Notes: a model not told the origin generated them from the sequence alone. Positions 1-19,744 are shown, counted from the stretch's first letter. The stretch is 52,016 nucleotides of DNA from a virus (IMGVR_UViG_3300030380_004731:1-52016), one strand, 5' to 3'. Numbers and translations are program-made.

Positions 1-5
1 GAGAA

Positions 6-830
6 ATGACGTTAAAAGAATTTTCCGATAGGTCTGTTGCAATGGGCGAAGTTTCCAGAAAAAAAATTGCTGATGTTAATGCAAAATATGACAAGATTGA
101 TTTTGATAAACAAGATGAACAATTTAGGTTATTGAGTGAATTAAGAGAAACAGAAGAGGAAAAAGAAATAACTAAATTAATAGAAGGTTATGAGGCTAAA
201 TTTGAACTTGCTCAAGGAAATGCAATACTCGAAACTGAATTACAAAAAAGTTTAAATGAAGAACTTGCAAAAATAAATGATAAGTACAGAAAAGAAGAAG
301 AAGATAAAGACAAAGAACAAGTAGAAAGAAAACGAGTAAGTATGATGCAACAATTAGATATTGCTCATGCTGGTTTGGGTGCTATTGGTGATTTGGTAAA
401 TGCTTTGGCTGATGATAATGAAAAGAGTGCAAGAAGGGCATTTAATGTGAATAAAGCCGTAGGAATTGCTCAAGCGGTTATTAGTACGGCACAAGGTATT
501 ATGAAGGCTATGGCAGAAACAACTGATGTTACACCTACTCAATCTTTAAGATTTGCAAATGCAGCGGTAGTTGGAATCACAGGAATTGCACAAATTGCAA
601 CCATAGCGAAACAACAATTTAAAAGTTCTGGAAGTAGTGGAAATATTGAAACGCCAAGTGCAAATGCTGGTGGCTCAGCACCTCAACCAAACTTTAACGT
701 AGTTGGCGATAGTGGTGTGAATCAATTAGCACAATTACAAATGCAACCAACTCAGGCATATGTTGTGTCTGGAGATATTACAACGGCACAGAGTTTAGAT
801 AGAAATAAGATTGAAAATGCAACAATTTAA
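6..830 (+). CDS. C-terminal part of tape-measure-like tail protein (truncated by window edge)
   Basis: Charged coiled-coil followed by Ala/Gly/Ile-rich amphipathic helices (KAVGIAQAVISTAQGIMKA...GIAQIATIAKQQF) and a terminal AYVVSGDITTAQ motif typical of Bacteroidota siphovirus tape-measure C-termini. Confidence 0.6.
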   Translation: MTLKEFSDRSVAMGEVSRKKIADVNAKYDKIDFDKQDEQFRLLSELRETEEEKEITKLIEGYEAKFELAQGNAILETELQKSLNEELAKINDKYRKEEEDKDKEQVERKRVSMMQQLDIAHAGLGAIGDLVNALADDNEKSARRAFNVNKAVGIAQAVISTAQGIMKAMAETTDVTPTQSLRFANAAVVGITGIAQIATIAKQQFKSSGSSGNIETPSANAGGSAPQPNFNVVGDSGVNQLAQLQMQPTQAYVVSGDITTAQSLDRNKIENATI

Positions 831-847
831 ATTAAAAGCGTTATATA
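821..847 (+). promoter_or_regulatory. Putative phage late promoter, copy 1 (AACAA-N11-AGCGTTATATA)
   Basis: Identical bipartite motif with identical 11-nt spacer at 821, 2202 and 4546, each just upstream of a structural gene start. Confidence 0.7.
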
Positions 848-850
848 AAT

Positions 851-2074
851 ATGAAAATTATCGAATTAATATTAAACGAAGAAGAAGAACAAGCTGGAAT
901 ACAAGCCGTTTCAGTAGTTGAAAACCCAGCAATAGAAGAAGACTGGATTGCTTTAAAAAAACATGAAGTAGAATTAAAAACTATTAATGAAGAAAAAAGG
1001 CTTTTAATGGGGCCAGCTTTGATACCAAATAAGCAGATTTTTAGGCGTAATGAAGATACTAAAGAAGATTATTATATTTATTTTAGTGAGAAAACTGTAC
1101 GTAAAGCCAGTCAATTATTCTTAAAAGAATCAAACCAAAATAATGCTACGATAGAACACGAATCAAAAATTGAAGGAATGAGTGTTGTCGAAAGTTGGCT
1201 TGTAGAAGATTCAAAAAAAGATAAAAGTTCTTTATATGGTTTTAAAGCAGAAAAAGGCACATGGTTTATTACTATGAAGGTGGACAACGAAGAAGTCTGG
1301 CAGAAAGTAAAAGCTGGAGAAATTAAAGGCTTTTCCATAGAAGGCTACTTTAGTGAGAAATCAAATTTAAAACAAGAATTAAAATCTATTGTAGTAGATG
1401 AAGATATTGCAATCATAGATGATAGAAATGCTTATAGCACAAAGGAAAAAGCATTAGAAGTTGCTAAAGAAGTAGGTTGCGAAAGTTATCACGAACACGA
1501 ATTTGAGGGAAAAGTTTGGTTTATGCCTTGCAAAGAGCATTCATTAAGTGAAGAAATACCAACTGTGAATTTTAAAAAACCTTGTTGGGACGGATATGAG
1601 CAAGTAGGTTTTAAAATGAAAGACGGAAAGAAAGTACCTAATTGCGTTCCAATAAAAAACTCTACTGACCTGGAATCATATGCAGATTACCCAGATGCAG
1701 TAAAAAATAATGCTAAAAGAGGAATGGAATTAAACAAAAAGAATGGCAATAAATGTGCTACTCTTGTTGGAAAAAATAGAGGGGCTGACTTGTCAAAAGG
1801 GCGTGCCTTGAATGTAGACACAATAAAAAGAATGTACTCGTATTTAAGTAGAGCCAAAACTTATTATGATAAAGCTGACACAAATGATTGTGGAAATATT
1901 AGCTATTTGCTTTGGGGTGGTTTAGCTGGTTTGCGTTGGTCTGAAAGTAAACTTAAAAAGCTGGAAAAGTTAAGTGAAGTAAAAGAAGATTTAAATAAAA
2001 AAATCATAGAGGAATTAAAAAATTTAATTTTAGATCATGAAAAAAAAGAAAAAACAAATAAAGGACAAAAATAG
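851..2074 (+). CDS. XkdF-like putative prohead serine protease with C-terminal accessory Cys/His modules
   Basis: AVSVVENPAIEE, LMGPALIPNKQIFR, VVESWLVED, GTWFITMKV, GEIKGFSIEG motifs; lies upstream of scaffold and capsid genes. Confidence 0.8.
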   Translation: MKIIELILNEEEEQAGIQAVSVVENPAIEEDWIALKKHEVELKTINEEKRLLMGPALIPNKQIFRRNEDTKEDYYIYFSEKTVRKASQLFLKESNQNNATIEHESKIEGMSVVESWLVEDSKKDKSSLYGFKAEKGTWFITMKVDNEEVWQKVKAGEIKGFSIEGYFSEKSNLKQELKSIVVDEDIAIIDDRNAYSTKEKALEVAKEVGCESYHEHEFEGKVWFMPCKEHSLSEEIPTVNFKKPCWDGYEQVGFKMKDGKKVPNCVPIKNSTDLESYADYPDAVKNNAKRGMELNKKNGNKCATLVGKNRGADLSKGRALNVDTIKRMYSYLSRAKTYYDKADTNDCGNISYLLWGGLAGLRWSESKLKKLEKLSEVKEDLNKKIIEELKNLILDHEKKEKTNKGQK

Positions 2075-2192
2075 AACACCAAGTAAAACCTCGCCAAAAG
2101 GTGGCAATAGGGGTTGTTTGTGTGAAGATAATACATACCATAAGGATTGTTGTAATGGTAGTTTACACGCACAAGGCATTGGAAAAGTTTAA
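2037..2192 (+). CDS. Small basic Cys-rich protein (51 aa, not in ORF track)
   Basis: Hand translation MKKKKKQIKDKNRTPSKTSPKGGNRGCLCEDNTYHKDCCNGSLHAQGIGKV; fills the gap between protease and the next promoter motif. Confidence 0.7.
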   Translation: MKKKKKQIKDKNRTPSKTSPKGGNRGCLCEDNTYHKDCCNGSLHAQGIGKV

Positions 2193-2201
2193 TGAAAATC
2201 T

Positions 2202-2228
2202 AACAAAATAAAAATTAAGCGTTATATA
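2202..2228 (+). promoter_or_regulatory. Putative phage late promoter, copy 2
   Basis: AACAA aataaaaatta AGCGTTATATA, 17 nt upstream of the scaffold ATG. Confidence 0.7.
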
Positions 2229-2245
2229 GTTGTAAAATTATAATT

Positions 2246-2851
2246 ATGGAAAAAAATACTGATATCATATCAAAAATAAAAACCTTATTAGGTTTAGAGC
2301 AAACAGAAGTAAATCTTGCTCAAATGAAGTTAGAAGACGGACTTACAATTGTTGAGTCTGAAAAATTCGAAGAAGGAGATAACATCTCAATAATCGCAGA
2401 AGACGGAAAAGTTGCAATGCCTGTTGGCGAATATGAACTTGAGGACGGCAGAATGATTGTAGTCAAAGAAGAGGGCATAATTGATATGGTAAAAGGAAAA
2501 GAGGAAAAAGAAGAAAAAGAGGAAGTAATTGAGAAAGAAGAAGAAAAAGAGGAGTATGTTGAACAAGAGGCAGAAACTCCAAAAAAAGTAGTTGAGACAG
2601 TTACTAAAGAATTTCATTTTGAGGAAATAGAAAAGCTTAAAAAAGAAATTGAAGAACTTAAATTAAAAATTCAACCACAAGAAGAAGATAAAAAAGAGGA
2701 AAAAGAAGAAGTGATTGAATTAAAAGAAGAAGAAAAAATTGAGCCAATTGTACATAATCCAGAAAACAAAAAAGAAATTGAAGGCTTTAAATTTTCTCAA
2801 AACAGAACAGAAACTACTCTTGACAGAGTAATGAATCGATTAAGTAAATAA
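2246..2851 (+). CDS. Capsid scaffolding protein (segment A)
   Basis: Highly acidic and coiled-coil, MPVGEYELEDGRMIVVKEEG motif, between protease and capsid gene. Confidence 0.6.
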   Translation: MEKNTDIISKIKTLLGLEQTEVNLAQMKLEDGLTIVESEKFEEGDNISIIAEDGKVAMPVGEYELEDGRMIVVKEEGIIDMVKGKEEKEEKEEVIEKEEEKEEYVEQEAETPKKVVETVTKEFHFEEIEKLKKEIEELKLKIQPQEEDKKEEKEEVIELKEEEKIEPIVHNPENKKEIEGFKFSQNRTETTLDRVMNRLSK

Positions 2852-2875
2852 ATTAATAATTAAAAACTAAAAAAA

Positions 2876-3796
2876 ATGGGTGTATCTTTAACATCAACTT
2901 ATGCTGGGGAGTTCGCTGGAAAATATATTTCTGCGGCCTTACTTTCAGCTCAAACATTAGACAAAGGTCTAATCACAGTATTACCAAACGTAAAATATAA
3001 GCAAGTTTTACAAGTAGGTGCATTAGGAAACATTGTTGCAAACGCAACTTGTGACTATACAGCATCTGGTACTTTAACACTAACAGAAAAAATCATTGAG
3101 CCAGAGGAATTCCAGGTTAACTATGATGTTTGTAAAAAAGACTTAGTAAATTCTTGGGAGGCAGAACAAATGGGTTTTAGCGCATTTGATAATCTTGCAC
3201 CAAGTCTTTCAGATTTCATTATTGCACATACGGCTGCAAAAGTGGCTGCTCAAGTTGAAAACACTATCTGGGCAGGTCAAACTGGAACGGCTGGAGAATT
3301 TGACGGATTCTATTACAAAGCTACCGCTGGTGGTTCTGGTTGTGTTGCAGTTACTGGTACTGGTATCACGGCTACGAACGTGATAACGGAATTAGGCAAG
3401 GTGGTTGACGCTATACCGCAAAGCGTGTACGGAAAAGAAGATTTACATATCTACGTAGCACCAAATGTAGCAAGAGCATACATTCGTGCATTAGGTGGGT
3501 TTGTTGCAACTATCGGTGCAAATGGTGTTGATAATAAAGGAACAAGCTGGTACACTAACGGAGCACTTTCTTTTGACGGAATTCCAGTTGTAGTAGCACA
3601 AGGCTTACCAGCATCATCAATGATGGCTGCTCAAAAATCTAACTTATTTTTCGGCACTGGTTTGCTTTCAGACCATAACGAGGTTAGAGTTTTAGACATG
3701 GCAGAACTTGACGGCTCACAAAATGTTCGCGTTATCATGAGATTTACTGGTAGCGTTGAAATGGGTATTAACTCAGACGTAGTAATCTACGCATAA
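2876..3796 (+). CDS. Major capsid protein (segment A)
   Basis: 306 aa after protease and scaffold; TYAGEFAGKYI start, VAAQVENTIWAG long helix, AQKSNLFFGTGL; followed by a hairpin. Confidence 0.8.
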   Translation: MGVSLTSTYAGEFAGKYISAALLSAQTLDKGLITVLPNVKYKQVLQVGALGNIVANATCDYTASGTLTLTEKIIEPEEFQVNYDVCKKDLVNSWEAEQMGFSAFDNLAPSLSDFIIAHTAAKVAAQVENTIWAGQTGTAGEFDGFYYKATAGGSGCVAVTGTGITATNVITELGKVVDAIPQSVYGKEDLHIYVAPNVARAYIRALGGFVATIGANGVDNKGTSWYTNGALSFDGIPVVVAQGLPASSMMAAQKSNLFFGTGLLSDHNEVRVLDMAELDGSQNVRVIMRFTGSVEMGINSDVVIYA

Positions 3797-3808
3797 GACT
3801 AATTAATT

Positions 3809-3836
3809 GAGGGGTGTCAAAACCCCTCTTATTTTT
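3809..3836 (+). terminator. Hairpin/intrinsic terminator after capsid gene
   Basis: GAGGGG-tgtcaaaa-CCCCTC followed by TTATTTTT. Confidence 0.65.
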
Positions 3837-3857
3837 AAATTTTTAAAACCACAAAAC

Positions 3858-4442
3858 ATGAGTTGTGATATAATTGGCGGAAGAACGGAGCAATGCAAGG
3901 ATGCAGTTTCTGGACTTCATGCAATATACTTAATAAACTATGGCGATTTAGACATGGATGCACTTGCTCAATATGGAACTGTTGATAATACAGACCAAAT
4001 TGTAGCTATTCAATCTGACGGCATTACATTTTCAGCATTTAAGTTTGAATTAAAGGGCAATAATTCTTTTGAGCAAACGATAAATTCCTCGAGAGAAAAT
4101 GGCACTACATTTTTCGAACAAACATTAACTGTTCAATTAAAAAGACAAGACGTTAAATCTACTAAAAACGTAAAACTAATTTCTTACGGAAGACCAAGAA
4201 TTATTGTACACGCAAGAGGAGACCAATTCTTTTTAATGGGATTAGACCAGGGTTGTGATGTATCTGCTGGAAACATATCTAGCGGTAGCGCACTTGGAGA
4301 CTTTAACGGCTACTCGCTCACATTTACTGCAATGGAAGAGTTACCAGCGAACTTTATTAACTGTACTAATGAAACTGAATTGAAACTTTTATTACAAAAT
4401 GGTGCTGGTGGCACTGGAGTTTGTAATATAGTTACTTCATAG
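3858..4442 (+). CDS. Putative major tail (tube) protein; start revised to ATG 3858
   Basis: MSCD...CKDAVSG...FKFELKGN.SFEQ..SSRENGTTFFEQTL; beta-rich structural gene after the capsid gene; the track's 3807 start overlaps the terminator. Confidence 0.55.
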   Translation: MSCDIIGGRTEQCKDAVSGLHAIYLINYGDLDMDALAQYGTVDNTDQIVAIQSDGITFSAFKFELKGNNSFEQTINSSRENGTTFFEQTLTVQLKRQDVKSTKNVKLISYGRPRIIVHARGDQFFLMGLDQGCDVSAGNISSGSALGDFNGYSLTFTAMEELPANFINCTNETELKLLLQNGAGGTGVCNIVTS

Positions 4443-4483
4443 GAGTTTTCTTTATCAAATTTTATAATTTGTATTACTCAAAG

Positions 4484-4510
4484 AAGGTCGTATTTATACG
4501 GCCTTTTTTT
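4484..4510 (+). terminator. Intrinsic terminator
   Basis: AAGGTCGTA-ttta-TACGGCCTT stem followed by a T-run. Confidence 0.75.
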
Positions 4511-4545
4511 CTGTGATCTAAAATTTATTTTAGTCTTATATTTCT

Positions 4546-4572
4546 AACAAATTTGAATTTTAGCGTTATATA
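4546..4572 (+). promoter_or_regulatory. Putative phage late promoter, copy 3
   Basis: AACAA atttgaatttt AGCGTTATATA, downstream of a terminator and 3 nt before ATG 4576. Confidence 0.7.
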
Positions 4573-4575
4573 AGT

Positions 4576-4929
4576 ATGATAATATTAAAAGTAGATACAA
4601 ACCCACAATCATTTAAATTTATTCCTAGAAGTAAAACTTATGACGGATTATTTATAAAAGATGAGAGTACAAATGTAGAAACACAAATTACAATTAGCAG
4701 TAGTTCCTCTAATGATTATTATGAATCAATTACTGCGACGTTTCACATAGCATCTCCTGTGTTTAATTTAGTTGAGGATAGGTTTTATCGTCTATTGGTT
4801 AAAAATGGCACAGACATAGTTTATAGAGATAGAATTTTTGTAACTAATCAAGTTATTGCTAACTTTAATGTTAATGAAAATGTATATCAATCGAATGCAT
4901 CAACAAATGAATTTATAATTTATGAATAA
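4576..4929 (+). CDS. Hypothetical structural protein
   Basis: 117-aa beta-rich ORF overlapping the portal start. Confidence 0.6.
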   Translation: MIILKVDTNPQSFKFIPRSKTYDGLFIKDESTNVETQITISSSSSNDYYESITATFHIASPVFNLVEDRFYRLLVKNGTDIVYRDRIFVTNQVIANFNVNENVYQSNASTNEFIIYE

Positions 4930-6730
4930 TAACTCACACATATTAAATTTAAGTGCTTATGAAGTACCACAAATTGTAGAAGATAAAAGACGAGATTGGG
5001 TTTTATATGGAAAAAACAACGATTATTTTGAATTCCTTATAAATAACTATAAAAATTCAACTACGAATAACGCAATAATAAATAACATTTGTAGGTTGGT
5101 TTATGGAAAAGGATTAAGTGCCTTAGATGCGAGTAAAAAGCCAAATGAGTATGCTCAAAGCATTAGTCTATTTTCTCCAGAAGATTTAAAAAAAGTAATA
5201 TTAGATTTTAAGATGCTCGGACAAGGTGCATTTCAAATACATTACTCAAAAGATAGAAAAAAGATTATTAAAGCTTTGCATATACCAGTTCAATTATTAG
5301 GTGCTGAAAAGTGTAATGAAAACGGAGAAATTGAAGGATATTATTATTCGGATAATTGGGAAAATGTAAAAAAATTTCCACCAAAAAGAATTCCAGCATT
5401 TGGGTATAGTAGTGAAAAAATAGAAATATTATATTTCAACAATTATACACCTGGAATGAAATATTACTCATGTGTTGATTATGTCGGTGGCTTATCATAT
5501 TGTACACTTGAAGAAGAAATAAGCGAGTACTTAATTAATGATGTACAGAACTCATTTAGTTCTACAAAGGTGGTTAACTTTAATAATGGAATTCCAACAG
5601 AGGAACAACAAGAAATCGTTAGTTCAAAAGTGATGAATAAATTAACTGGCTCAAATGGGCAGAAAGTCATTGTTTCTTTTAATAGTGATGAAACAAGCAA
5701 GACAACTGTTGATGACATTCAATTAAATAATGCTCCAGAACATTACCAATACTTAGCTGACGAGTGTATGCGTAAAATTATGGTTGCTCATAATGTTACC
5801 TCGCCACTATTATTTGGCATAGCAAGTAAAAATGGTTTTTCAAGTAACGCAGACGAGTTGAAAGATTCATCAATACTTTTTGACAATATGGTTGTAAAAC
5901 CAATTCAAAATGTTTTAATAGATGCTTTAGATAAAATTTTAGCATTCAATGATGTATCATTAAAATTATATTTCAAAACATTACAACCCTTAGATTTTAA
6001 AGATTTAGAAGGTGTCGAAGATGAAGAAGTGATTGAAGAAGAAACAGGAATTGAAACAGAATTAAATTCATTAGTCTTAAATGATGAAACTAAAAAAAGT
6101 TTAATAGATAATTTAGACGGAGAAATCATAGACGAGCAAGAATGGGAATTAGTAGACAAGAGAGTTTTCAATGAAGAAAACGAAAGCATTGATGATTGGG
6201 CGAATAGAGTTATAAGAAGAAAAAAAAGTAATTTAACTAAGTTAAAAGATTACATTACAAGTTATCCAAATAGAAAATCTTTTTTAGATAAGGATATTTA
6301 TAAAGTTAGATATTCATATGAGGAAATAAAGAAAGGATCTAAAACTGGAAAAAGCAGAGATTTTTGTCAGCATATGATGAAAAGGACAGATAAAGGTGTA
6401 CGTTATAGAAAAGAAGATATAGACATGGCATCTTTTCAAGGTGTTAACAATAAGTTCGGACATAAAGGTCAAAATTATAGTTTATTCAAGTACAAAGGTG
6501 GGCCAAATTGCTATCATTTTTGGGCAGAAAATCTTTACAGATTAAAGAAGAAAACTGACGGAAGTTTTTATAAAGATAAAAGCTTAGCAAGTTCTGAAAT
6601 TGTAGGCGAGTTACCTTATATAGTAAACCCAAATGGCTGGAAAGAGGCACAAATTGCACCAATAGATATACCAAAAACCAGTACCAACCCTGGTAGAGGT
6701 TACCACCCAAATAATAAAAGATTTCAATAA
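4922..6730 (+). CDS. Portal protein (segment A) with C-terminal MuF-like extension
   Basis: WVLYGKNNDY, STTNNAII, KLTGSNG, IMVAHNVTSPLLFGI...GFSSNADE portal motifs; acidic linker then SRDFC...YKGGPNCYHFW domain. Confidence 0.8.
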   Translation: MNNNSHILNLSAYEVPQIVEDKRRDWVLYGKNNDYFEFLINNYKNSTTNNAIINNICRLVYGKGLSALDASKKPNEYAQSISLFSPEDLKKVILDFKMLGQGAFQIHYSKDRKKIIKALHIPVQLLGAEKCNENGEIEGYYYSDNWENVKKFPPKRIPAFGYSSEKIEILYFNNYTPGMKYYSCVDYVGGLSYCTLEEEISEYLINDVQNSFSSTKVVNFNNGIPTEEQQEIVSSKVMNKLTGSNGQKVIVSFNSDETSKTTVDDIQLNNAPEHYQYLADECMRKIMVAHNVTSPLLFGIASKNGFSSNADELKDSSILFDNMVVKPIQNVLIDALDKILAFNDVSLKLYFKTLQPLDFKDLEGVEDEEVIEEETGIETELNSLVLNDETKKSLIDNLDGEIIDEQEWELVDKRVFNEENESIDDWANRVIRRKKSNLTKLKDYITSYPNRKSFLDKDIYKVRYSYEEIKKGSKTGKSRDFCQHMMKRTDKGVRYRKEDIDMASFQGVNNKFGHKGQNYSLFKYKGGPNCYHFWAENLYRLKKKTDGSFYKDKSLASSEIVGELPYIVNPNGWKEAQIAPIDIPKTSTNPGRGYHPNNKRFQ

Positions 6731-7230
6731 TGGCAGAGGCATTAATTATTTCCAGGAAAGACATAGTACGATTCACTTCAATGAATGGAAACGTAGATAC
6801 GTCAAAATTTATTCAACACATTAAGATTGCACAAGACACTCATATACAGAATTATATTGGCACAGATTTATTAGAGAAGATACAAGCGGATATTATTGCT
6901 GGTACTTTAGCTGGTAATTATTTGACCTTAGTAACAAAATATCTAAAACCAATGCTAATACATTATGCTATGGTAGAATTTTTGCATTATGCAAGTTTTA
7001 CAATTAGTAATAAGGGAGTATATAAACATAGTGCTGAGAATAGTGTTACGGCAAGTAGTGAAGAAATAAATAATTTGGTTGCAAGTGAGCAGAGAATTGC
7101 TGAACATTACACTCAAAGATTTGTAGATTACATTTGCAGTAACTCAAATTTATTTCCAGAATATAACTCAAATAGTAGTGAAGATATGTACCCAAGTACA
7201 GACGTAAATAATACAAATTGGTATATATAA
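6730..7230 (+). CDS. Putative head-tail adaptor/connector protein
   Basis: Directly follows the portal; IKIAQDTHIQNYIGTDL...LKPMLIHYA helical protein; function inferred from position. Confidence 0.55.
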   Translation: MAEALIISRKDIVRFTSMNGNVDTSKFIQHIKIAQDTHIQNYIGTDLLEKIQADIIAGTLAGNYLTLVTKYLKPMLIHYAMVEFLHYASFTISNKGVYKHSAENSVTASSEEINNLVASEQRIAEHYTQRFVDYICSNSNLFPEYNSNSSEDMYPSTDVNNTNWYI

Positions 7231-7233
7231 AAA

Positions 7234-7350
7234 ATGAAGAAAAGAACAGTTTATAAGATAAAGAATCAAAACTTAATTAAATTAAAAAAGTTTTGTGATA
7301 AAAAACCAGAGTATAAAAACATATTACAATTATGGCAGAAGTTAAAATAA
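7234..7350 (+). CDS. Small basic hypothetical protein (38 aa, not in ORF track)
   Basis: Hand translation MKKRTVYKIKNQNLIKLKKFCDKKPEYKNILQLWQKLK fills the gap. Confidence 0.45.
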   Translation: MKKRTVYKIKNQNLIKLKKFCDKKPEYKNILQLWQKLK

Positions 7351-7772
7351 GCGAATTAACAAATAAAGGTACTTTTTTAGAAGATACTGATTTATTTATA
7401 ATTAGTAAATCTGACGGCTCTGGCGGTTATGATTCTAAATATTTAACTGGTACAGAATTAAGACAAATTGAACTTAATAAAGAAGGTGCTAGTTACACTT
7501 TGGTTTTAGCTGATGCTAATAGATTAGTAGAAATGGAAAACGGAAGTGCTAACAATTTGACTATACCACCAAATAGTAGCGTTGCTTTTCCAGTTGGTAC
7601 TCAAATATTGATTAGTCAATTAGGTGCTGGGCAAACAACAGTAGTTGCTGGTAGTGGTGTGACATTACGTTCAAGTGGTGGTAAAACAAAACTTTCGGCT
7701 CAATATGCAATGGGTAGTTTAATAAAGCGTGGTACTGATGAGTGGTATTTGGCAGGAGATATAACGACATAA
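7332..7772 (+). CDS. Tail fibre/spike-associated protein
   Basis: KISEL N-terminal adaptor motif; YTLVLAD...TIPPNSSVAFPVGT...GAGQTTVVAGSGVTL...DEWYLAGD domain common in phage fibres. Confidence 0.6.
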   Translation: MAEVKISELTNKGTFLEDTDLFIISKSDGSGGYDSKYLTGTELRQIELNKEGASYTLVLADANRLVEMENGSANNLTIPPNSSVAFPVGTQILISQLGAGQTTVVAGSGVTLRSSGGKTKLSAQYAMGSLIKRGTDEWYLAGDITT

Positions 7773-7775
7773 ATT

Positions 7776-11345: not shown

Positions 11346-11351
11346 AATTAA

Positions 11352-11915: not shown

Positions 11916-11916
11916 A

Positions 11917-12207: not shown

Positions 12208-12433
12208 AGAATTAATAAAAGTTGCTCAAGAAGAAATAATAAAGCCTGACCCTGAAGATGAGCTTGCTGCAGATAGATTAAAGAATGCTGCGGCTACAAA
12301 GAAACTAGCCATCATAGATGCGTTTGATATATTAAAACGTATAGATGAAGAGAAAGAAAAATTAGATTACGAAGGAACAGGAACAAAACGAACAGACACA
12401 AAACAAGGATTTGCAGAGCGAAGATCAAAATAG
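12143..12433 (+). CDS. Putative terminase small subunit
   Basis: Small helical protein overlapping the TerL start; positional inference. Confidence 0.45.
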   Translation: MTTMESNQLKLKIIEAGKKAVKELIKVAQEEIIKPDPEDELAADRLKNAAATKKLAIIDAFDILKRIDEEKEKLDYEGTGTKRTDTKQGFAERRSK

Positions 12434-14657
12434 TTTATACAGAGTAGTAAAGGATTATATCCCTGCTAAAAAAATAGCTCGTTATAACAAGCTAAAGAAG
12501 TGGGACTATGGATATAATAAAGATTATGACGTAGTTATTATTTCTAAGAATGGAACTATTGGTGAGATTATTTGTATTAGTGGTTTGTATATAGCCCTTC
12601 CTTCTGTTCCTAGTAAAGTGTATTCAAGAAGTAAAAAAACAAGCGAACAATATTGGGAAAGAAAAAATTATGATCGTAGTTTAAGCAGAATCAATTCTAT
12701 ATTTCAATGGAATGAAATGCCAAGAGACTTTAAGGATAAGTGGGTAGACTACATTGAAGAAGAGTTTGACAGCAGAGATTACGGACATTGGTTTAAAAAC
12801 AATGGAACACCTACTTATATTACAGGAGCACACTATATGTATTTACAGTGGACAAAGATTGATGTAGGTTATCCTGACTACAGAGAAGCTAATAGAATAT
12901 TCTTTATATATTGGGAGGCTTGTAAAGCTGATAAGAGATGCTTTGGAATGATATACTTAAAGATAAGACGTTCAGGTTTTTCATTCATGGGTTCAGCAGA
13001 AGCTGTCAATACAGCAACTATTGCAAGAGATTCAAGAGTAGGTATTTTGTCTAAAACGGGAGCAGATGCAAAGAAGATGTTTACCGATAAGGTAGTTCCT
13101 ATATCTCATCACTTGCCTTTCTTTTTTAAACCTATTCAAGATGGTATGGACAAACCAAAGACTGAATTAGCCTACAGGGTTCCTGCCTCTAAGATTACAA
13201 AAAAGAATATGTATGATGTAGATAACGAGGAGATTCAAGGACTTGACACTACAATAGATTGGAAGAATACTGATGACAACTCTTATGATGGTGAGAAGTT
13301 GTTACTACTTGTACATGATGAGAGTGGTAAATGGCTAAAGCCTAACAATATATTAAATAATTGGAGGGTAACTAAAACTTGTTTAAGGTTGGGTAGTAAG
13401 ATAATTGGAAAGTGCATGATGGGATCTACATCAAATGCCTTAAGTAAAGGGGGTGGTACTTTTAAAAAACTATATGAAGACTCTAATGTATTGAAAAGAA
13501 ACTCCAATGGTATGACAAAGAGTGGTATGTATTCTTTATTTATTCCTATGGAGTGGAACATGGAGGGTTTTATAGATAGATATGGATGTCCTGTATTTAG
13601 AACACCTAAGACACCGATAAGAGGAGTGGATGATGAGATGATTGACTTTGGTGCAGTAAACTATTGGGAGAACGAGGTCACATCTTTAAAGAGTGACCCT
13701 GATGCACTTAATGAATTTTATAGACAGTTTCCTAGAACAGAGTCTCATGCCTTTAGAGATGAAAGTAAATCTTCTTTATTTAATCTTACTAAGATATATC
13801 AGCAGATAGATTACAATGATTCATTGATACAAGATCACCATACAACAAGAGGATCGTTTCATTGGTTGAATGGAGAGAAAGATACTAAGGTAGTATTTAG
13901 TCCTGATAAGAGAGGCAGGTTCCTTGTAAGTTGGACTCCTGAGAAAGCCTTACAAAATAGAATCATCGTTAAGAATGGAATTAAATATCCTGCCAATGAA
14001 CATCTAGGTGCGTTTGGGTGTGACTCGTATGATATATCAGGAGTAGTGGGTGGCGGTGGATCTAATGGTGCGTTACATGGTGTAACTAAATTTAATATGG
14101 ACAATGCTCCAAGCAATGAGTTTTTCTTACAGTATGTTGCACGACCACAAACGGCTGAGATATTCTTTGAAGAAGTATTAATGGCTTGTGTGTTTTATGG
14201 TATGCCAATACTTGCAGAGAATAATAAACCAAGAATACTTTATCATTTTAAGAATAGAGGTTATCGAGGATTCTCTATGAATAGACCTGATAAAGTTTAT
14301 ACGAAGCTCTCTAAGACCGAAAGAGAACTCGGAGGAATACCTAACACCTCTGAAGATGTAAAACAATCTCACGCAGCAGCTATTGAGTCTTATATTGAAA
14401 AGTATGTAGGCATAGACATGGAGGGAACATATAGGGACAGTGATGCAATGGGATCAATGATATTCACAAGGACATTGGAAGATTGGGCAAGATTTGATAT
14501 AAATAATAGAACAAGATATGATGCGACAATAAGCTCAGGACTAGCTGTAATGGCTATTCAAAAACACTTATATCAACCTGAGAAAAAAGAGTCAAAAATA
14601 AGCATTAACTTTGCAAGGTATAATAACAAGGGAAGAACAAGCGAATTAATAAGATAG
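12411..14657 (+). CDS. terL: Terminase large subunit
   Basis: Walker A-like LKIRRSGFS, Walker B LLVHDESGKW, coupling motif GST, nuclease GCDSYD, LAENN, YDATISSG. Confidence 0.9.
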   Translation: MQSEDQNSLYRVVKDYIPAKKIARYNKLKKWDYGYNKDYDVVIISKNGTIGEIICISGLYIALPSVPSKVYSRSKKTSEQYWERKNYDRSLSRINSIFQWNEMPRDFKDKWVDYIEEEFDSRDYGHWFKNNGTPTYITGAHYMYLQWTKIDVGYPDYREANRIFFIYWEACKADKRCFGMIYLKIRRSGFSFMGSAEAVNTATIARDSRVGILSKTGADAKKMFTDKVVPISHHLPFFFKPIQDGMDKPKTELAYRVPASKITKKNMYDVDNEEIQGLDTTIDWKNTDDNSYDGEKLLLLVHDESGKWLKPNNILNNWRVTKTCLRLGSKIIGKCMMGSTSNALSKGGGTFKKLYEDSNVLKRNSNGMTKSGMYSLFIPMEWNMEGFIDRYGCPVFRTPKTPIRGVDDEMIDFGAVNYWENEVTSLKSDPDALNEFYRQFPRTESHAFRDESKSSLFNLTKIYQQIDYNDSLIQDHHTTRGSFHWLNGEKDTKVVFSPDKRGRFLVSWTPEKALQNRIIVKNGIKYPANEHLGAFGCDSYDISGVVGGGGSNGALHGVTKFNMDNAPSNEFFLQYVARPQTAEIFFEEVLMACVFYGMPILAENNKPRILYHFKNRGYRGFSMNRPDKVYTKLSKTERELGGIPNTSEDVKQSHAAAIESYIEKYVGIDMEGTYRDSDAMGSMIFTRTLEDWARFDINNRTRYDATISSGLAVMAIQKHLYQPEKKESKISINFARYNNKGRTSELIR
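14606..14613 (+). promoter_or_regulatory. Bacteroidota -7 element (TAACTTTG) upstream of portal
   Basis: TAnnTTTG within the 3' end of terL, 44 nt before the portal ATG. Confidence 0.4.
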
Positions 14658-17093
14658 ATGAAAGACGTTAAGATAAATATATCCTCAGCAGGATTTCCAA
14701 ATCAGTTTGTATCTGATGCGGAAAAAGCAACCGATCAATATGGATTACAAATCGGTCAAGCCATTCAGTATGAGTGGTTTAGAAAAGACGGAAGCCAATG
14801 TAGATTTTACAATCAGTTTGCAAACTTTAATAGATTAAGGTTGTATGCTAGAGGTGAACAGTCAATAGCTAAATATAAAAATGAAATAGCTGTTGATGGT
14901 GACTTATCTTATTTGAATCTTGATTGGACTCCCGTCCCTATACTCCCTAAGTTTGTAGATATAGTTGTTAATGGTATGGCAGATAGACTATTTAAAGTTA
15001 ATGCTTACGCACAAGATGCTGTGTCTCAAGCTAAAAGAAGTAAGTATCAGGAGATGGTAGAATCTCAAATGAATGCTAGAGATATACTAAGCCTAGTTAA
15101 AGAAGAATCAGGAGTTGATCCTTTTATTATGCCTGAAGAAGAACTACCAAAAACAGATGAGGAGCTTAGTTTATTTATGCAAGTTAACTACAAGCCTGCA
15201 ATAGAGATAGCTGAAGAAGAAGCTATTGACACCTTGCTTGAAGCCAACCACTATCAAGACCTAAGAAAAAGATGCGACTATGACCAAATGGTATTAGGTG
15301 TATCTATGGCAAAGCATGAGTTTTTACCGGGAGCAGGAGTGAAGGTGTCTTATGTAGATCCGGCTAATGTGGTATATAGCTATACTGAGGACCCTCACTT
15401 TAAAGATTGTTTCTATTGGGGTGAGATTAAAACACTTCCTATAACAGAGCTTTTAAAAATTGATCAAGACCTAACTAATGAAGACTTAGAGGAAATAAGC
15501 AGTCATAGTCAAAATTGGTATAACTATTATAATGTTGCTCAGTTCTATGAGAACAGTTTATTCTATAAAGATACTTGTACTTTATTATATTTTAATTATA
15601 AGACCACTCAAAAGACTGTATATAAAAAGAAATACTTTGAAGGAGGAGGAAGCAAAGTAATTGAGAAGGATGATAGCTTCAACCCACCTGCAGAAATGAT
15701 GGAAGAGGGTAAGTTTGAAAAGATAGAGAAGACTATTGATGTGTGGTATGAAGGGGTAATGGTAATGGGTACTAATATTATATTAAAGTGGGAGCTTGCA
15801 AAGAACATGGTTCGCCCTAAGTCTGCAACTCAACACGCTATACCTAATTATATTGCTGTAGCACCACGAATGTATAAAGGAAACATTGAGTCTCTTGTAA
15901 GAAGAATGATTCCATTTGCTGACTTAATTCAAATAACTCATTTAAAAATACAACAAGTATTGTCGAGAGTAGTTCCTGATGGTGTATTTATAGATGCGGA
16001 TGGATTGAATGAAGTAGATCTTGGAACAGGAAATGCTTATAATCCTGAAGATGCTCTGAGGTTATACTTTCAAACGGGTAGTGTAATAGGTAGAAGCTAT
16101 ACTCAAGATGGTGAGTTTAATCAAGCAAGAGTGCCTATCCAAGAATTAAATAGTAACTCAGGAAGCGGAAAGTTAAATATGTTGGTTAACAACTACAACC
16201 ATTACTTAAACATGATAAGGGATGTAACAGGGTTAAATGAAGCAAGAGATGGCTCATCCCCTAATCCTAATTCATTAGTTGGTTTACAAAAACTTGCAGC
16301 GTTAAGTTCTAATACAGCAACACGCCATATCCTAAACAGCAGTTTATATATGATGAGAACTTTAGCTGAAGGACTTACATATAGAGTAGCAGACATATTA
16401 GAGTATGCTGACTTTGCTGATGAGTTCGCAAATCAAATAGGTAAGTATAATGTAGCGAGACTTGAAGATATAAAAGATCTTTACATATATGACTTTGGTA
16501 TTTTTATAGAGGTTAGTCCTGATGAAGAAGAGAAAGCTATGCTTGAGCAAAACATTCAGATGGCATTGTCTCAAAAAGATATTAACCTTGAGGATGCTAT
16601 TGACATTAGAGAAGTTAAAAACATAAAACTTGCTACTCAACTATTAAAGGTTAAAAGAAAGCAGAAGCAAGAGCACGATGACTTTATGGCTATGCAGGCA
16701 CAACAGATGCAAGCACAGCAACAGATGCAAATACAGCAGATGGCTGCACAGTCCGCACAAGAAAAGATTCAGGCTGAAACACAATCTAAGATTCAAATCA
16801 AAGAAGCTGAGATACAGTTCGAGGTTCAGAAGATGCAGGCTGAAGCACAACTTAAACGTCAGCTAATGGCTGAAGAGTTCGCTTACAATCAAGAGCTAAG
16901 AGGAATGAGTGAAACTGCTTTACAAGAAAGAGAAAGCCAAAGAGAGGTAGCTAAGTCTGATAGGATAACACAACAGAACAATCAACAGTCTAAATTGATC
17001 AATCAAAGGAAGAATAATTTACCCCCTCAAACCTTTGAATCTAATGAAGATAGTTTAGATGGATTTGACCTTGCAGAGTTTTCTCCAAGGTAG
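14658..17093 (+). CDS. Portal protein (segment B)
   Basis: 811 aa directly after TerL; PILPKFVDIVVNG, IRDVTGLNEARDG, DFGIFIE and a Gln-rich C-terminal coiled-coil barrel as in P22/crAss-type portals. Confidence 0.85.
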   Translation: MKDVKINISSAGFPNQFVSDAEKATDQYGLQIGQAIQYEWFRKDGSQCRFYNQFANFNRLRLYARGEQSIAKYKNEIAVDGDLSYLNLDWTPVPILPKFVDIVVNGMADRLFKVNAYAQDAVSQAKRSKYQEMVESQMNARDILSLVKEESGVDPFIMPEEELPKTDEELSLFMQVNYKPAIEIAEEEAIDTLLEANHYQDLRKRCDYDQMVLGVSMAKHEFLPGAGVKVSYVDPANVVYSYTEDPHFKDCFYWGEIKTLPITELLKIDQDLTNEDLEEISSHSQNWYNYYNVAQFYENSLFYKDTCTLLYFNYKTTQKTVYKKKYFEGGGSKVIEKDDSFNPPAEMMEEGKFEKIEKTIDVWYEGVMVMGTNIILKWELAKNMVRPKSATQHAIPNYIAVAPRMYKGNIESLVRRMIPFADLIQITHLKIQQVLSRVVPDGVFIDADGLNEVDLGTGNAYNPEDALRLYFQTGSVIGRSYTQDGEFNQARVPIQELNSNSGSGKLNMLVNNYNHYLNMIRDVTGLNEARDGSSPNPNSLVGLQKLAALSSNTATRHILNSSLYMMRTLAEGLTYRVADILEYADFADEFANQIGKYNVARLEDIKDLYIYDFGIFIEVSPDEEEKAMLEQNIQMALSQKDINLEDAIDIREVKNIKLATQLLKVKRKQKQEHDDFMAMQAQQMQAQQQMQIQQMAAQSAQEKIQAETQSKIQIKEAEIQFEVQKMQAEAQLKRQLMAEEFAYNQELRGMSETALQERESQREVAKSDRITQQNNQQSKLINQRKNNLPPQTFESNEDSLDGFDLAEFSPR

Positions 17094-17119
17094 CTTAATT
17101 AAGTTGTGTTTTTTTTGTT

Positions 17120-17127
17120 TAACTTTG
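17120..17127 (+). promoter_or_regulatory. Bacteroidota -7 element (TAACTTTG)
   Basis: Intergenic, 17 nt before scaffold ATG 17145. Confidence 0.65.
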
Positions 17128-17144
17128 TAGTAAAATTTAATTAA

Positions 17145-18260
17145 ATGGAAATAAAAGTAAAAGCAATAGAAGGGAGTGGAGAAAAAAGCACTCAAGAAGT
17201 AGAAAAAGAATTACTTGAAAAGCACGAAGAACAATTTGAAGACTCTTCAGTTCAAGTGCAAGAAAAAACGGAAACTCCTGTAGAGGAAGTTCCACAAGTT
17301 GAATCGAAAGAGGAAACAAAAGAAGAAGCATCCTTAACGGATGATGACGTTCTTTCATATATTGAGAATAGGTACGGAAAGAAAATCAATTCATTTGATG
17401 AGTTGATGACAGAGCGTGAGACATCAGAAGAATTACCTGAAGATGTAGCAGCTTACTTTAAGTACAAAAAAGATACAGGTCGTGGCATTGAAGATTATGT
17501 TAAGTTACAGCAAGACTTTGATTCAATGGAAAGCGACCATTTGTTAGCTGAATACTATATGGCTACAGAAGAAGGTTTAGACCGAGAAGATGTAGAAGAT
17601 ATGGTAGATGAGTTTTCGTATGACGAAGAAATTGATGACGAGAAAGACATCAAGAAAATGAAGCTATCAAAGAAAAAAGAAATTGCAAAGGCTAAGAAGT
17701 TTTTCAATGAGCGGAAGGAAATGTATAAACAACCCCTTGAGTCAAGTACGGTTGGAATGTCTGATGAAGCCAAGAAACAACTAGAAGAGTACAAGCAATA
17801 TGTAGACAATGCAAAGTCGTATGAAGAGGAGAACAAGCGTAAGAGCGAGTGGTTCGTAAAGAAGACAGATGAAGTGTTTGACAATGAGTTCAAAGGTTTT
17901 GAGTTCAAGTTAGATGACCGAAGCGTTACTTACTCTCCTGCAGATGCAGCAGAACTAAAGAAGTCACAGATGACTCCAATGAATTTTGTAAATAAATACT
18001 TGGATGAAAATGGACTAATGAAGGATGCGACAGGATACCACCGAGCACTATCTATAGCTATGAACCCTGAGAGGTTTGCTAAGTTCTTTTATGAGCAAGG
18101 TAAATCAGAAGCGGTAGACGGAGTGATGCGTAAACAAAAGAATGTCAACATGACAACACGCAAATCACCTGAGACTGTTAACAAAGGGGGATTACAAATT
18201 AAAGCTATGAATCCTGATTCAGGACGAGGGCTTAAAATTAGAAGTATAAAAAGAAAATAA
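17145..18260 (+). CDS. Putative scaffolding protein (segment B)
   Basis: Very acidic helical protein between portal and capsid gene. Confidence 0.6.
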   Translation: MEIKVKAIEGSGEKSTQEVEKELLEKHEEQFEDSSVQVQEKTETPVEEVPQVESKEETKEEASLTDDDVLSYIENRYGKKINSFDELMTERETSEELPEDVAAYFKYKKDTGRGIEDYVKLQQDFDSMESDHLLAEYYMATEEGLDREDVEDMVDEFSYDEEIDDEKDIKKMKLSKKKEIAKAKKFFNERKEMYKQPLESSTVGMSDEAKKQLEEYKQYVDNAKSYEEENKRKSEWFVKKTDEVFDNEFKGFEFKLDDRSVTYSPADAAELKKSQMTPMNFVNKYLDENGLMKDATGYHRALSIAMNPERFAKFFYEQGKSEAVDGVMRKQKNVNMTTRKSPETVNKGGLQIKAMNPDSGRGLKIRSIKRK

Positions 18261-18283
18261 AAACAATTTAAAAATTAAAAAAA

Positions 18284-19744
18284 ATGGCAGTTTTATCAAC
18301 ACCGGGATTTGACTTACAACCAAGTGCACAACAGGTCCCAACATCAACAAACTACATTACCAATTTTAATTTCTTGAATCAGTATCTACCTGATACTTAT
18401 GAAAAAGAATTTGAAAGATATGGTAATAGAACAATCGCATCTTTCCTTAGAATGGTAGGAGCAGAGATGCCTTCAAACTCAGACCAAATAAAATGGGCGG
18501 AGCAAGGACGATTACATATAAAATATACTAAAGTAGGAGCGGCAGCCGCAGGTACCGGATTAAATACTATGGATATACAAATTAATGACGATGCTGTCCC
18601 TGCAGGCTTAGTAACTCCAAACGGAACAACAGCAGGTACTCCTTTCAACGCTACAAATGGTATAGCTCTTAGAGTTGGACAAACAGTTATGTTAGTTCCA
18701 AATGCAGGGGGTGCAAGTAACAAAGCAGTAGTTACAGGCACTGACTTAGCTAACAAACAAGCTACCTTACATTTTTATGAAGGTACAGGTTTAGCAGTAG
18801 CAGGTACAGGAATTGCTAATGCTGATTACACTCTATTTATATATGGTTCTGAATTTAAGAAAGGAACAGCAGGAATGTCAGGAAGCCTTGAGGCGGATGA
18901 CTATATCTTTGCTAACAATCCTATCATTATCAAAGACACTTATAAAGTATCAGGTTCTGATATGGCTCAAATCGGATGGATTGAAATTTCAACTGAAGAT
19001 GGAGGCACAGGATACCTTTGGTATTTAAAGTCTGAACATGAAACAAGACTACGTTTTGAGGATTACCTAGAAACAGCAATGATTGAAGCAGTTCCTGCTG
19101 CAACAGGATCAGGTGCTGTAGGACAAGGATTTATAGGATCTGAAGGTATCTTCCATGTTGTAGAGAACAGAGGTAATGTATGGGGTGGAGGAAACCCTGT
19201 AGCATTAGCTGACTTTGATGCAGTTATTCAAAGATTAGATAAGCAAGGTTCTATTGAAGAAAATGTTATCTTCTTGAATCGTCAGTTTAGTTTTGATATG
19301 GATGATATGTTAGCAGCTCAAAATTCTTACGGAGCAGGTGGTACGTCTTACGGACTATTTGACAATGACGAAGAGATGGCTCTTAACTTAGGATTCTCAG
19401 GATTCAGAAGAGGATATGACTTCTACAAGACAGATTGGAAATACTTAAATGATCCAACAATGAGAGGTGGTATCACAGGAGCAGGTGTAGGAATCAATGG
19501 ACTATTAGTTCCTGCAGGTTCAACTTCTGTTTACGATCAAATCCTTGGAAAGAATGCAAAACGTCCTTTTCTTCATGTACGTTACAGAGCTTCTGAAACA
19601 GAAGACAGACGATACAAATCTTGGGTTACAGGTTCAGCAGGAGGAGCAAGAACTTCTGACGATGACTTTATGCAAGTAAACTTCTTATCTGAAAGAGCAG
19701 TTTGTACGCTTGGAGCGAACAACTTCTTCTTATTCAAAGACTAA
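18284..19744 (+). CDS. Major capsid protein (segment B)
   Basis: 486 aa after portal and scaffold; KWAEQGRL, PIIIKDTYKVSGSD, ETRLRFEDYLETAMI; followed by a strong terminator. Confidence 0.8.
   Translation: MAVLSTPGFDLQPSAQQVPTSTNYITNFNFLNQYLPDTYEKEFERYGNRTIASFLRMVGAEMPSNSDQIKWAEQGRLHIKYTKVGAAAAGTGLNTMDIQINDDAVPAGLVTPNGTTAGTPFNATNGIALRVGQTVMLVPNAGGASNKAVVTGTDLANKQATLHFYEGTGLAVAGTGIANADYTLFIYGSEFKKGTAGMSGSLEADDYIFANNPIIIKDTYKVSGSDMAQIGWIEISTEDGGTGYLWYLKSEHETRLRFEDYLETAMIEAVPAATGSGAVGQGFIGSEGIFHVVENRGNVWGGGNPVALADFDAVIQRLDKQGSIEENVIFLNRQFSFDMDDMLAAQNSYGAGGTSYGLFDNDEEMALNLGFSGFRRGYDFYKTDWKYLNDPTMRGGITGAGVGINGLLVPAGSTSVYDQILGKNAKRPFLHVRYRASETEDRRYKSWVTGSAGGARTSDDDFMQVNFLSERAVCTLGANNFFLFKD

Follow-up and report, generated by a model that had tools for sequence, protein, structure and literature searches.

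A viral metagenome record with two phage head modules is very probably an assembly chimera joined within a LamG gene

Known relatives and comparable systems

The closest described relatives of the left part of the sequence analyzed here are the Nonlabens (Persicivirga) phages P12024S and P12024L (genus Inhavirus), siphoviruses of 35.7 kb with a marine flavobacterium as host. In P12024S, the terminase gene sits elsewhere in the genome, outside the head region. The right part is related to Flavobacterium phages vB_FspP_elemoA/E (~60 kb), Cellulophaga podoviruses, Maribacter phage Panino, and the uncultured Caudoviricetes sp. MW202828 (60.85 kb), with a conserved order terminase, portal, scaffold, capsid. 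Two further kinds of known case are relevant to a sequence with two head modules. Phage satellites that make their own capsids exist, and the capsid-forming cf-PICIs are true examples of a second head module. Inter-genome chimeric contigs, produced by mis-joins at shared sequence, are a recognized artefact of short-read metagenome assemblies.

The window, that is, the whole stretch of DNA that was analyzed, is a complete IMG/VR entry of 52,016 nt (linear, CheckV completeness estimate 91%) with two sets of portal, scaffold, and capsid genes that are unrelated to each other but only a single gene for a large terminase. We denote its left part block A and its right part block B (Table 1). The comparisons below suggest that the record is very probably an in silico chimera of two phage genomes, produced by an assembly mis-join, and not one phage with two head modules. 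The head sets most likely come from two marine phages, and the record would therefore reflect an error in the database instead of a novel type of phage.

Table 1. Features of the window that bear on its two-part composition
Feature	Position	Strand	Evidence or remark
Block A	1-8273	+	siphovirus end piece: tape-measure C-terminus, head module, first 166 LamG codons
Tape-measure protein, C-terminal fragment	6-830	+	open 5' end, at contig end
XkdF-type prohead serine protease	851-2074	+	PF14550, E 1.5e-20; head-maturation-protease PHROGs
Scaffold-like protein, block A	2246-2851	+	C-terminal part of phrog_24921, E 7.5e-10
Major capsid protein, HK97-fold by prediction	2876-3796	+	phrog_11320 (unnamed); predicted structure
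Portal protein, block A	4922-6730	+	phrog_33693 'portal', E 2e-97
DUF6712 protein, probable head-tail connector by position	6730-7230	+	PF20459, E 3e-21; P12024S gp08 homologue
Small protein, fibre/minor-tail C-terminal domain	7332-7772	+	C-terminal ends of phrog_21510, phrog_8780, phrog_18179
Mosaic LamG (Laminin_G_3) gene containing the join	7776-8495	+	PF13385, E 2.7e-10
Third-allele stretch, 223 nt, last 74 LamG codons	8274-8496	+	between the two switch points
Gene for 89-aa protein after LamG	8505-8774	+	95.5% aa identity in L217/L218
Block B	8497-52016		~73% of a ~60-kb flavobacterial podovirus, probable crAss/SU10-type head
Large terminase, block B, only one in window	12411-14657	+	phrog_6681, E 1e-172
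Portal protein, block B	14658-17093	+	phrog_6547 'portal', E 3e-144
Scaffold candidate, block B, by position only	17145-18260	+	phrog_16786 (unnamed, function unknown)
Major capsid protein, candidate SU10/crAss type	18284-19744	+	phrog_13704 'virion structural protein', E 8e-100

Two head modules of different kinds

A preliminary description of this sequence listed two dissimilar portals, two capsid genes, and two scaffolds, with a single terminase and tape-measure-like genes on the left. The portals are indeed dissimilar: neither protein matches the PHROG family of the other. The A portal shows 37.6% amino acid identity to the annotated portal of P12024S/L, and PDB sequence searches with the A and B portals returned no match. 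The single terminase was likewise borne out; none of the 57 window open reading frames (ORFs) queried matched the terminase region of P12024S, that is, a P12024S-like terminase was not found in the window. The leftmost gene matches phrog_9483, phrog_3336, and phrog_1506 (E 1e-13 to 8e-11) and is 38% identical at the amino acid level to the C-terminus of P12024S gp49, in agreement with the tape-measure assignment.

The AlphaFold2 model of the A capsid candidate, built from 31 sequences of homologues (pLDDT 70.4, pTM 0.69), retrieved the T5, DT57C, GTA, HK97, and P4 capsids as the best Foldseek matches in the PDB (E 3e-12 to 1e-10, TM 0.46-0.60, probability 1.00), and a cf-PICI capsid (9gyi) was also among the fold matches. 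The predicted fold is that of HK97-type major capsid proteins. A maltose-binding protein, found when a profile of the same protein was compared with PDB sequences (E 0.043), was discarded as a chance match. Aligned over 98-100% of its length, the B capsid protein shares 45-63% identity with capsid proteins of the elemo, Cellulophaga, and Panino phages. Its look-alike clusters in the Atlas, in which 14-24% of members carry SU10_MCP and 33-56% Crass_capsid, provide a lead toward the SU10/crAss type. No match of this protein was found in Pfam, or in the PDB by sequence or profile, and its structure model (pLDDT 40.9) was too poor for a fold search.

The two scaffolds are more tentative. In block A, the protease gene matches the N-terminal part of phrog_24921 and the following gene its C-terminal part, and both map onto a single P12024S gene, gp01, with 2246-2851 corresponding to the C-terminal part; together with Glu/Lys-rich repeats in 2246-2851, this points to a putative scaffold function. 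The B candidate is conserved between the portal and capsid genes in set-B loci.

Base composition distinguishes the blocks only modestly. The tetranucleotide correlation of block A with five chunks of block B is 0.82-0.87, versus 0.90-0.945 among the B chunks, and a sharp step at the join was not seen in the GC profile.

Relatives of the two blocks

Block A is collinear with P12024S gp49 (C-terminus), gp01, gp02, gp03, gp06 (portal), and gp08, with a fibre-like gene, a small gene, and the lysis region coming next in P12024S, as in block A. Collinear matches were found for seven of the eight block-A ORFs at 32-47% amino acid identity, the exception being 4576-4929, for which no P12024S homologue was found. 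Because the identity is only 32-47%, block A would belong to a different genus-level lineage. By gene content and order, block A appears to be an ordinary Inhavirus-like siphovirus head region, but the window keeps only 8.3 kb of such a genome, and the terminase, tail, and replication genes of that lineage are absent from it. Five A genomes are near-complete, with sizes of 29.7-37.0 kb and, in one case, terminal repeats; each encodes its own P12024S-like terminase, and none encodes the B terminase.

On the A side, an independent siphovirus contig of 9,167 nt (L003) matches the window at 99.6% identity over 3279-8317, and another contig (L011) shows 94.7% identity over 341-6214. Past the join, L003 departs from the window: it has another LamG gene and a small gene of its own. 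The small protein encoded at 7332-7772 has full-length homologues in 8 set-A loci, and its C-terminal domain occurs alone in 5 set-B loci (42-50% amino acid identity). An 11-nt motif with three exact copies in the window, all in block A, upstream of the genes starting at 851, 2246, and 4576, was considered as a lineage marker and dropped, because among the fetched loci it recurs only in L001 (a piece of the window), in the near-identical L003 and L011, and once in a B locus (L136).

For block B, two independent podovirus contigs, L217 (from a 25,158-nt contig) and L218 (from a 21,261-nt contig), match the window at 94.6% identity over 8277-9976 and at 98.3% over 10230-18546, a stretch that includes the terminase and portal genes; from about position 8497, they become 94-100% identical to it. 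Upstream of the LamG cassette, where block A stands in the window, L218 has more than 10 kb of B-type DNA. The block-A genes of the window were not found in the 8.2 kb upstream of the cassette in L218; in tblastx comparisons, homologues of this stretch were seen in the upstream flanks of other B loci (among them L124, L129, L072, and L070), but in none of the A loci. The gene order small genes, terminase, portal, scaffold, capsid, virion proteins is conserved in 12 long B loci, and 77-80 of the 80 B loci contain the terminase and portal genes together with two genes upstream of them (11352-11915 and 12143-12433). Four B genomes are near-complete (58.8-61.1 kb; CheckV estimates of 97-100%); each encodes the B portal once and none encodes the A portal, a count that covers these four relatives, with L219 left out. 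Thus, unlike the window, none of the four has a second portal.

The gene at 9097-9705 initially resembled an A-type gene, with homologues in 7 A loci (29-34% amino acid identity) and in none of the 80 B loci; being 99.5-100% identical in L217/L218, it can be assigned to the B parent by sequence comparison. The metallophosphoesterase encoded at 41624-42334 shows 62% identity to P12024S gp16.

The junction in other sequences

The eight block-A ORFs at 6-7230 match 27-55 of the 55 portal-anchored set-A loci and none of the 80 terminase-anchored set-B loci, and ORFs from 9740 onward match none of the 55 A loci. Of 289 loci with any match, 104 contain A genes only and 97 B genes only; 13 combine A genes with one or two small accessory genes of the B part, and A head genes were found together with a B terminase, portal, or capsid gene in none of the 289. 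Exact-string searches gave no viral-contig match for 8385-8433 and 8614-8665, and a match in L003 only for 8229-8257, in a search set that may not include the window's own record.

Four public runs (X1, X3, X5, and X7), which may or may not include the source run, were compared as Logan contigs. In X1 and X3, the runs in which the window is best represented, contigs of the A side agree with it no further than position 8317; they have the L003 letters at 8274 and 8282, followed by the continuation of L003. None of the listed Logan contigs bridges 8273/8274. Mean word depths of contigs on the A and B sides are 23-28.5 versus 10.3 in X1 and 9.7-13.6 versus 5.3-7.2 in X3; because there is one figure per contig, this difference is weak evidence.

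Some stretches of the window lack contigs in these runs. In X1 and X3, no contig covers 8318-8554, where bin depths of 1.13 and 0.5 reflect only the tail of the A-side contig; in X5 and X7, which come from other studies, about 5500-7600 is without cover and the B side is covered. Such stretches were set aside, as holes in contig data prove nothing.

The mosaic LamG gene

The preliminary description placed the joining of two phages near the LamG gene and its small neighbour. We found that the two lineages meet inside the LamG gene, just before the small gene, with switch points at 8273/8274 and about 8496/8497. The gene is identical to L003 up to 8273, and a different allele follows. The first switch point sits in the conserved core of the LamG domain, and the reading frame stays open over both. 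L218 cannot be aligned to the part of the gene to the left of 8274.

The 223 nt between the switch points match neither parent closely: in 50-nt windows, identity is 58-68% to L003 and 64-76% to L218, and local identity to six other metagenome contigs is at most 0.88. This stretch was otherwise found in a single contig of the public runs (X5 record 17), of which 240 of 351 letters fit 8258-8497, with 13 differing letters and 2 gaps. A second contig of that run (X5 record 18; another study, 8459-8884, depth 3.3) extends across 8496/8497, reaching 38 letters to the left of it, and this switch may therefore be natural. L003 and L218 share an exact 29-nt stretch at a conserved motif, equivalent to window positions 8310-8338; thus, A and B LamG alleles can share k-mer-length strings. 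Low-depth X5 pieces on 7853-8307 have a loose end before 7853 that resembles the LamG start of L218, which hints at a possible A-like LamG core in some phage outside lineage A.

Origin of the join

That an assembly chimera is the likeliest cause, as had been proposed, agrees with these results, because the halves occur elsewhere at 98-99.6% identity with other continuations and the junction occurs in no other record. From the contigs, we infer an artificial origin of the join, in the assembler or in a chimeric library molecule, and not a natural one. Bases 1-8273 would be an end fragment of an Inhavirus-like siphovirus genome of ~30-37 kb, and bases 8497-52016 about three quarters of a ~60-kb flavobacterial podovirus genome, with marine Flavobacteriia as the probable hosts of both lineages. 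The assembler would have crossed between the genomes within the LamG cassette, at the conserved LamG core (8273/8274), and the assembly path would then have run through the LamG tail of the third allele, which probably belongs to the podovirus strain of that sample. The record resembles known chimeric contigs in that its halves are recovered separately and its unique junction lies at a conserved motif in a repeated, microdiverse cassette, but differs from them in that a third allele, and not a single long identical repeat, lies at the join and that an identical overlap to the left of 8274 was not observed.

Several observations go against a mis-join. A pure k-mer mis-join at 8273/8274 needs a podovirus LamG gene identical to block A over at least k-1 bases leftward, and no podovirus contig with such a gene was found. 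The bridging of 8496/8497 by X5 record 18 leaves that switch as a possibly natural one, and the open LamG frame over both switch points is what a natural homologous recombinant would show. The lineages also exchange genes, as the metallophosphoesterase and the LamG/small-gene cassette indicate, and natural recombination here is therefore possible in principle.

Nevertheless, it is unlikely that the record represents a natural recombinant, in which a podovirus of lineage B swapped its left-arm genes for siphovirus DNA through recombination in the LamG cassette. Such an inter-morphotype hybrid, with a second complete protease/scaffold/capsid/portal set, would probably be defective or very recent. 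Apart from the intact LamG frame, this explanation is favored by cassettes and other accessory genes common to both lineages, which would therefore meet in the same hosts. Against it, the junction is unique to this record, being absent from all 289 related loci and, for the two strings right of the join, from viral contigs; the closest B relatives, 98.3% identical, have B-type DNA upstream; and in X1 and X3 the A-side contigs, which are abundant, continue as L003 does and not as the window does. The hybrid would also be missing over 10 kb of the B genome and carry a redundant, incompatible head set along with a truncated tape-measure gene.

We consider it quite improbable that amplification or ligation joined two phage DNAs at a homologous stretch and the assembler followed the product faithfully. 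A library chimera of this kind would leave the same pattern as a mis-join: the parents would be recovered separately, and a junction seen nowhere else would lie at a homologous motif. One chimeric molecule, however, rarely prevails over the correct routes through the assembly graph. In both cases, the record is an artefact.

Finally, two adjacent elements in one molecule (prophages in tandem, or a phage genome into which a satellite with its own capsid gene has inserted) are a highly improbable source, despite the two head modules lying side by side on the same strand and the cf-PICI-like features of block A (a compact set of protease, scaffold, predicted HK97-fold capsid, and portal; 9gyi among the fold matches), because block A includes a tape-measure fragment and matches, gene for gene, a complete lytic-type siphovirus and not a head-only satellite, is cut by the contig end, and is joined inside a coding sequence at a homologous motif instead of an attachment site, and because no host gene, integrase (no such family among the PHROG/Pfam matches of ORFs 6-9705), repressor, or att-like repeat was found in or beside it, the search for flanking direct repeats being a partial test, with the left boundary cut by the contig end.

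As a probable assembly mis-join, the entry has practical consequences. This public viral record, rated 91% complete, contains ~8.3 kb that most likely belongs to another phage, and its podovirus part would amount to only about three quarters of a ~60-kb genome despite this rating. Left unchanged, the record would introduce false siphovirus-podovirus links into gene-sharing networks, taxonomy, and host prediction. Were the join natural after all, it would represent the capture of siphovirus structural genes by a marine flavobacterial podovirus, caught shortly after forming.

A variable LamG cassette in both lineages

The preliminary description also suggested that unrelated phages share a near-identical glycan-binding cassette. 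Homologues of LamG and of the small gene do occur in both lineages, and this part of the suggestion stands; near-identity does not. The database parents show only ~40% amino acid identity for the LamG protein and ~64% for the small protein, exact nucleotide identity between the parents was seen over the 29-nt motif only, and the join runs via the third allele.

In both lineages, the tail-fibre genes adjoin a variable cassette, in which the conserved gene for the 89-aa protein comes after between one and three LamG genes, and contigs of both often break or tangle there. The cassette is therefore a variation hot spot, a predictable site of mis-assembly, and probably a receptor-binding module. 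It adjoins fibre genes in at least two unrelated lineages of flavobacterial phages and in many other marine phage contigs. The 89-aa protein has no Pfam or PHROG match; homologues are encoded in 77 metagenome loci, 62 of which extend far enough to show the preceding gene, and in 49 of these it is a LamG gene.

Gene content and the two head-gene sets

The record is linear (52,016 nt; CheckV completeness estimate, 91%), with ORFs on the plus strand up to 41,217 and on the minus strand beyond, where family searches placed the replication and recombination genes. The preliminary description had recognized two portal-scaffold-capsid sets accompanied by one terminase. The single terminase and the two portals, which belong to different families, were confirmed.

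Features of the window discussed in the text
Feature	Position	Strand	Basis
Tape-measure C-terminal fragment	6-830	+	Family search; open at base 1
XkdF protease	851-2074	+	Family search
Scaffold-like gene	2246-2851	+	Family search
306-aa protein	2876-3796	+	Family search; PHROG without a name
Left portal	4922-6730	+	phrog_33693, E 2e-97
DUF6712 protein	6730-7230	+	Family search
Small protein with fibre C-terminal domain	7332-7772	+	Family search
LamG gene	7776-8495	+	Family search
89-aa protein	8505-8774
86-aa gene	9966-10226		C-terminus matches a tail-protein PHROG, E 2e-12
Large terminase	12411-14657	+	phrog_6681, E 1e-172
Right portal, differs from left one	14658-17093	+	phrog_6547, E 3e-144
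Scaffold candidate	17145-18260	+
486-aa structural protein	18284-19744	+	phrog_13704, E 8e-100
2,794-aa ORF	32833-41217		C-terminal third alone, phrog_32588 (without a name), E 3.5e-57
Metallophosphoesterase	41624-42334	-	phrog_221, E 5.5e-52; PF00149
213-aa protein	43332-43973	-	phrog_3704, labelled 'ferredoxin' (auxiliary gene category)

The model of the 306-aa protein, built from 31 homologues (pLDDT 70.4), found its best solved-structure matches among HK97-fold capsids (T5, DT57C, GTA, and HK97; E 3e-12 to 1e-10), and the left set therefore contains a genuine capsid gene. The model of the 486-aa protein reached a pLDDT of only 40.9, and this protein had no Pfam match and no PDB sequence match. 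Its assignment as the second capsid protein is supported by its PHROG, by Atlas look-alike clusters that contain SU10_MCP or Crass_capsid, by the annotation of its counterparts in cultured relatives as structural protein, and by the position of its gene directly 3' of the portal and scaffold genes. The two scaffolds are plausible assignments only. Two large virion proteins (1,555 and 2,794 aa) also belong to the right set. The longer one, for which no Pfam match was detected, could be, judging by size and position, a giant virion/ejection protein typical of crAss-like podoviruses.

Relatives of the two parts

The left part of the window (block A) is collinear in gene order with Nonlabens phage P12024S (35.7-kb siphovirus, genus Inhavirus), with seven of the eight block-A ORFs having matches of 32-47% aa identity to gp49, gp01, gp02, gp03, gp06, and gp08, in unchanged order. 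The block-A succession, in which the tape measure comes first, the protease, scaffold, and capsid genes next, and the portal last, is the native P12024S order across the genome ends. The right part (block B) has a capsid protein 45-63% identical to those of Flavobacterium 'elemo' podoviruses (~60 kb), Cellulophaga phages, and Maribacter phage Panino.

An 11-nt motif occurs in three exact copies (837-847, 2218-2228, and 4562-4572; about one expected by chance with one mismatch allowed), each a few bases 5' of a start codon in block A (851, 2246, and 4576) and within a ~45-nt repeated intergenic element. Kept only in near-identical contigs, the motif could serve the block-A siphovirus as a promoter or leader element.

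Two lineages separate elsewhere

With the left portal as query, 55 loci were obtained from viral contigs (set A); for the terminase, the best 80 of 599 matches were retained (set B). Eight ORFs at 6-7230 were matched in 27-55 of the 55 A loci and in none of these best 80 of 599 B loci; conversely, thirteen ORFs from 9740 to 20561 were matched in none of the 55 A loci and in 1-80 of the same 80. Among the 289 loci with any match, 104 carried A genes alone, 97 B genes alone, and 13 A genes with one or two small B-part accessory genes, mostly the metallophosphoesterase; no locus of the 289 paired A head genes with a terminase, portal, or capsid gene of B. All four near-complete B genomes (58.8-61.1 kb) encode the B portal once and lack the A portal, and of the five near-complete A genomes, which measure 29.7-37.0 kb and include one having terminal repeats, none encodes the B terminase and each has its own, resembling that of P12024S. 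Tetranucleotide usage separates the blocks modestly (r = 0.82-0.87 for block A vs B chunks; 0.90-0.945 among B chunks).

The metallophosphoesterase of the podovirus part shares 62% aa identity with P12024S gp16, and 10 Inhavirus-like loci contain homologues; it is a real accessory gene common to the podovirus and siphovirus lineages.

Position of the join

An independent viral contig of 9,167 nt (L003) matches the window over 3279-8317 with 99.6% identity; in a 50-nt scan, identity extends to ~8273 and drops thereafter to 58-68%, as L003 continues into a second LamG gene and then its own small gene. Scanning metagenomes with the 89-aa protein as query yielded two contigs, L217 (25,158 nt) and L218 (21,261 nt), that match the window at 98.3% over 10230-18546 and at 94-100% from ~8497 on; their versions of its 8826, 9097, and 9740 proteins are 98.7-100% identical. 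The LamG gene of L218 differs from that of the window (40% aa), and the 8.2 kb upstream of it contains no block-A genes and shows homology to the flanks upstream of other B loci, with none to any A locus. Thus, the window belongs to A through 8273 and to B from ~8497 on, which places the join in the LamG gene ahead of its small neighbour, in agreement with the original suggestion of a join near these two genes. The 223 nt between the switch points, the last 74 LamG codons, represent a third allele, found elsewhere only in one low-depth contig from a public run of another study.

Further right, 9976-10230 is a variable slot, where ~450 different bases replace the 86-aa gene in L217/L218; the same type of replacement is present in one contig from a public run, X7.

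Parts of 6300-10300 are contained in 20 public runs, four of which, from one study, have 78-88% of the sampled words. We compared contigs from two runs of that study (X1 and X3) and from two other studies (X5 and X7). The fit of the X1 and X3 A-side contigs ends at 8317; at 8274 and 8282 their letters are those of L003, whose continuation they then follow. The X1 B-side contig (4,345 nt) terminates at 8555. Among the contigs listed for the four runs, none spans 8273/8274; one X5 contig spans 8496/8497, with 38 letters left of the switch, so that the mis-join may be confined to the left-hand switch, the right-hand one being natural. Contig depth on the A and B sides was 23-28.5 vs 10.3 in X1 and 9.7-13.6 vs 5.3-7.2 in X3 (whole-contig means, given little weight). 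Over 7372-8073, X1 has numerous short contigs with variant letters and a summed contig depth of 36-77 (51-77 over 7372-7839) vs 23-28 on the block-A flanks, suggesting that the fibre C-terminal domain and LamG N-terminus are common (>=93%, i.e., at least that identity) to several co-occurring phages or highly microdiverse.

The LamG cassette

In both lineages, the cassette comprises one, two, or three LamG genes and, after them, a homologue of the 89-aa gene; several contigs start or end within it (L081, L085, L089, and L091 of set B; L004 and L008 of set A). Homologues of the 89-aa protein, which has no Pfam or PHROG family, were found in 77 metagenome loci: 10 Inhavirus-like, 5 podovirus-B-like, and 62 neither. 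The loci of neither type include contigs of 109-133 kb (L229, L230, and L267, within L216-L293). Of those among the 77 that have room to show it, also 62 in number, 49 have LamG directly 5'. Identity of the 89-aa protein reaches 96% (aa) and is 52-64% between lineages; that of the preceding LamG is lower, about 30-45%. The proposal of a near-identical glycan-binding cassette in unrelated phages thus holds for a common, widespread cassette but not for near-identity, the two parents sharing 40% (LamG) and 64% (small protein). The 89-aa protein could act as a chaperone or adaptor for the fibre.

The 213-aa protein is 93% identical (aa) to the product of 16008-16646 in L272, a metagenome contig of 33 kb that is otherwise unrelated and likewise carries the LamG and small-gene cassette.

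Origin of the join

It is very probable that two co-occurring phage genomes were joined artefactually within a common, variable receptor-binding cassette. Assembly chimerism, already favoured in the preliminary description, is retained as the parsimonious reading, given that the parents continue differently (L003, L218) and that A and B heads are combined in none of the 289 loci. Immediately to the right of the switch, at a conserved LamG motif, 29 nt are exactly identical in the A and B parents, which shows that stretches as long as a k-mer can be identical in the two lineages; the identical overlap required for a k-mer mis-join at 8273/8274 itself was not observed. A natural hybrid is improbable. 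A chimeric molecule made in the library, an artefact all the same, is very unlikely, and adjacent integrated elements are scarcely credible.

Under the preferred reading of an artefactual join, the CheckV estimate includes 8.3 kb of foreign DNA. Because its relatives measure 58.8-61.1 kb, the podovirus part (~43.5 kb) is nearer 73% complete, and the missing portion would include upstream DNA like that of L218.
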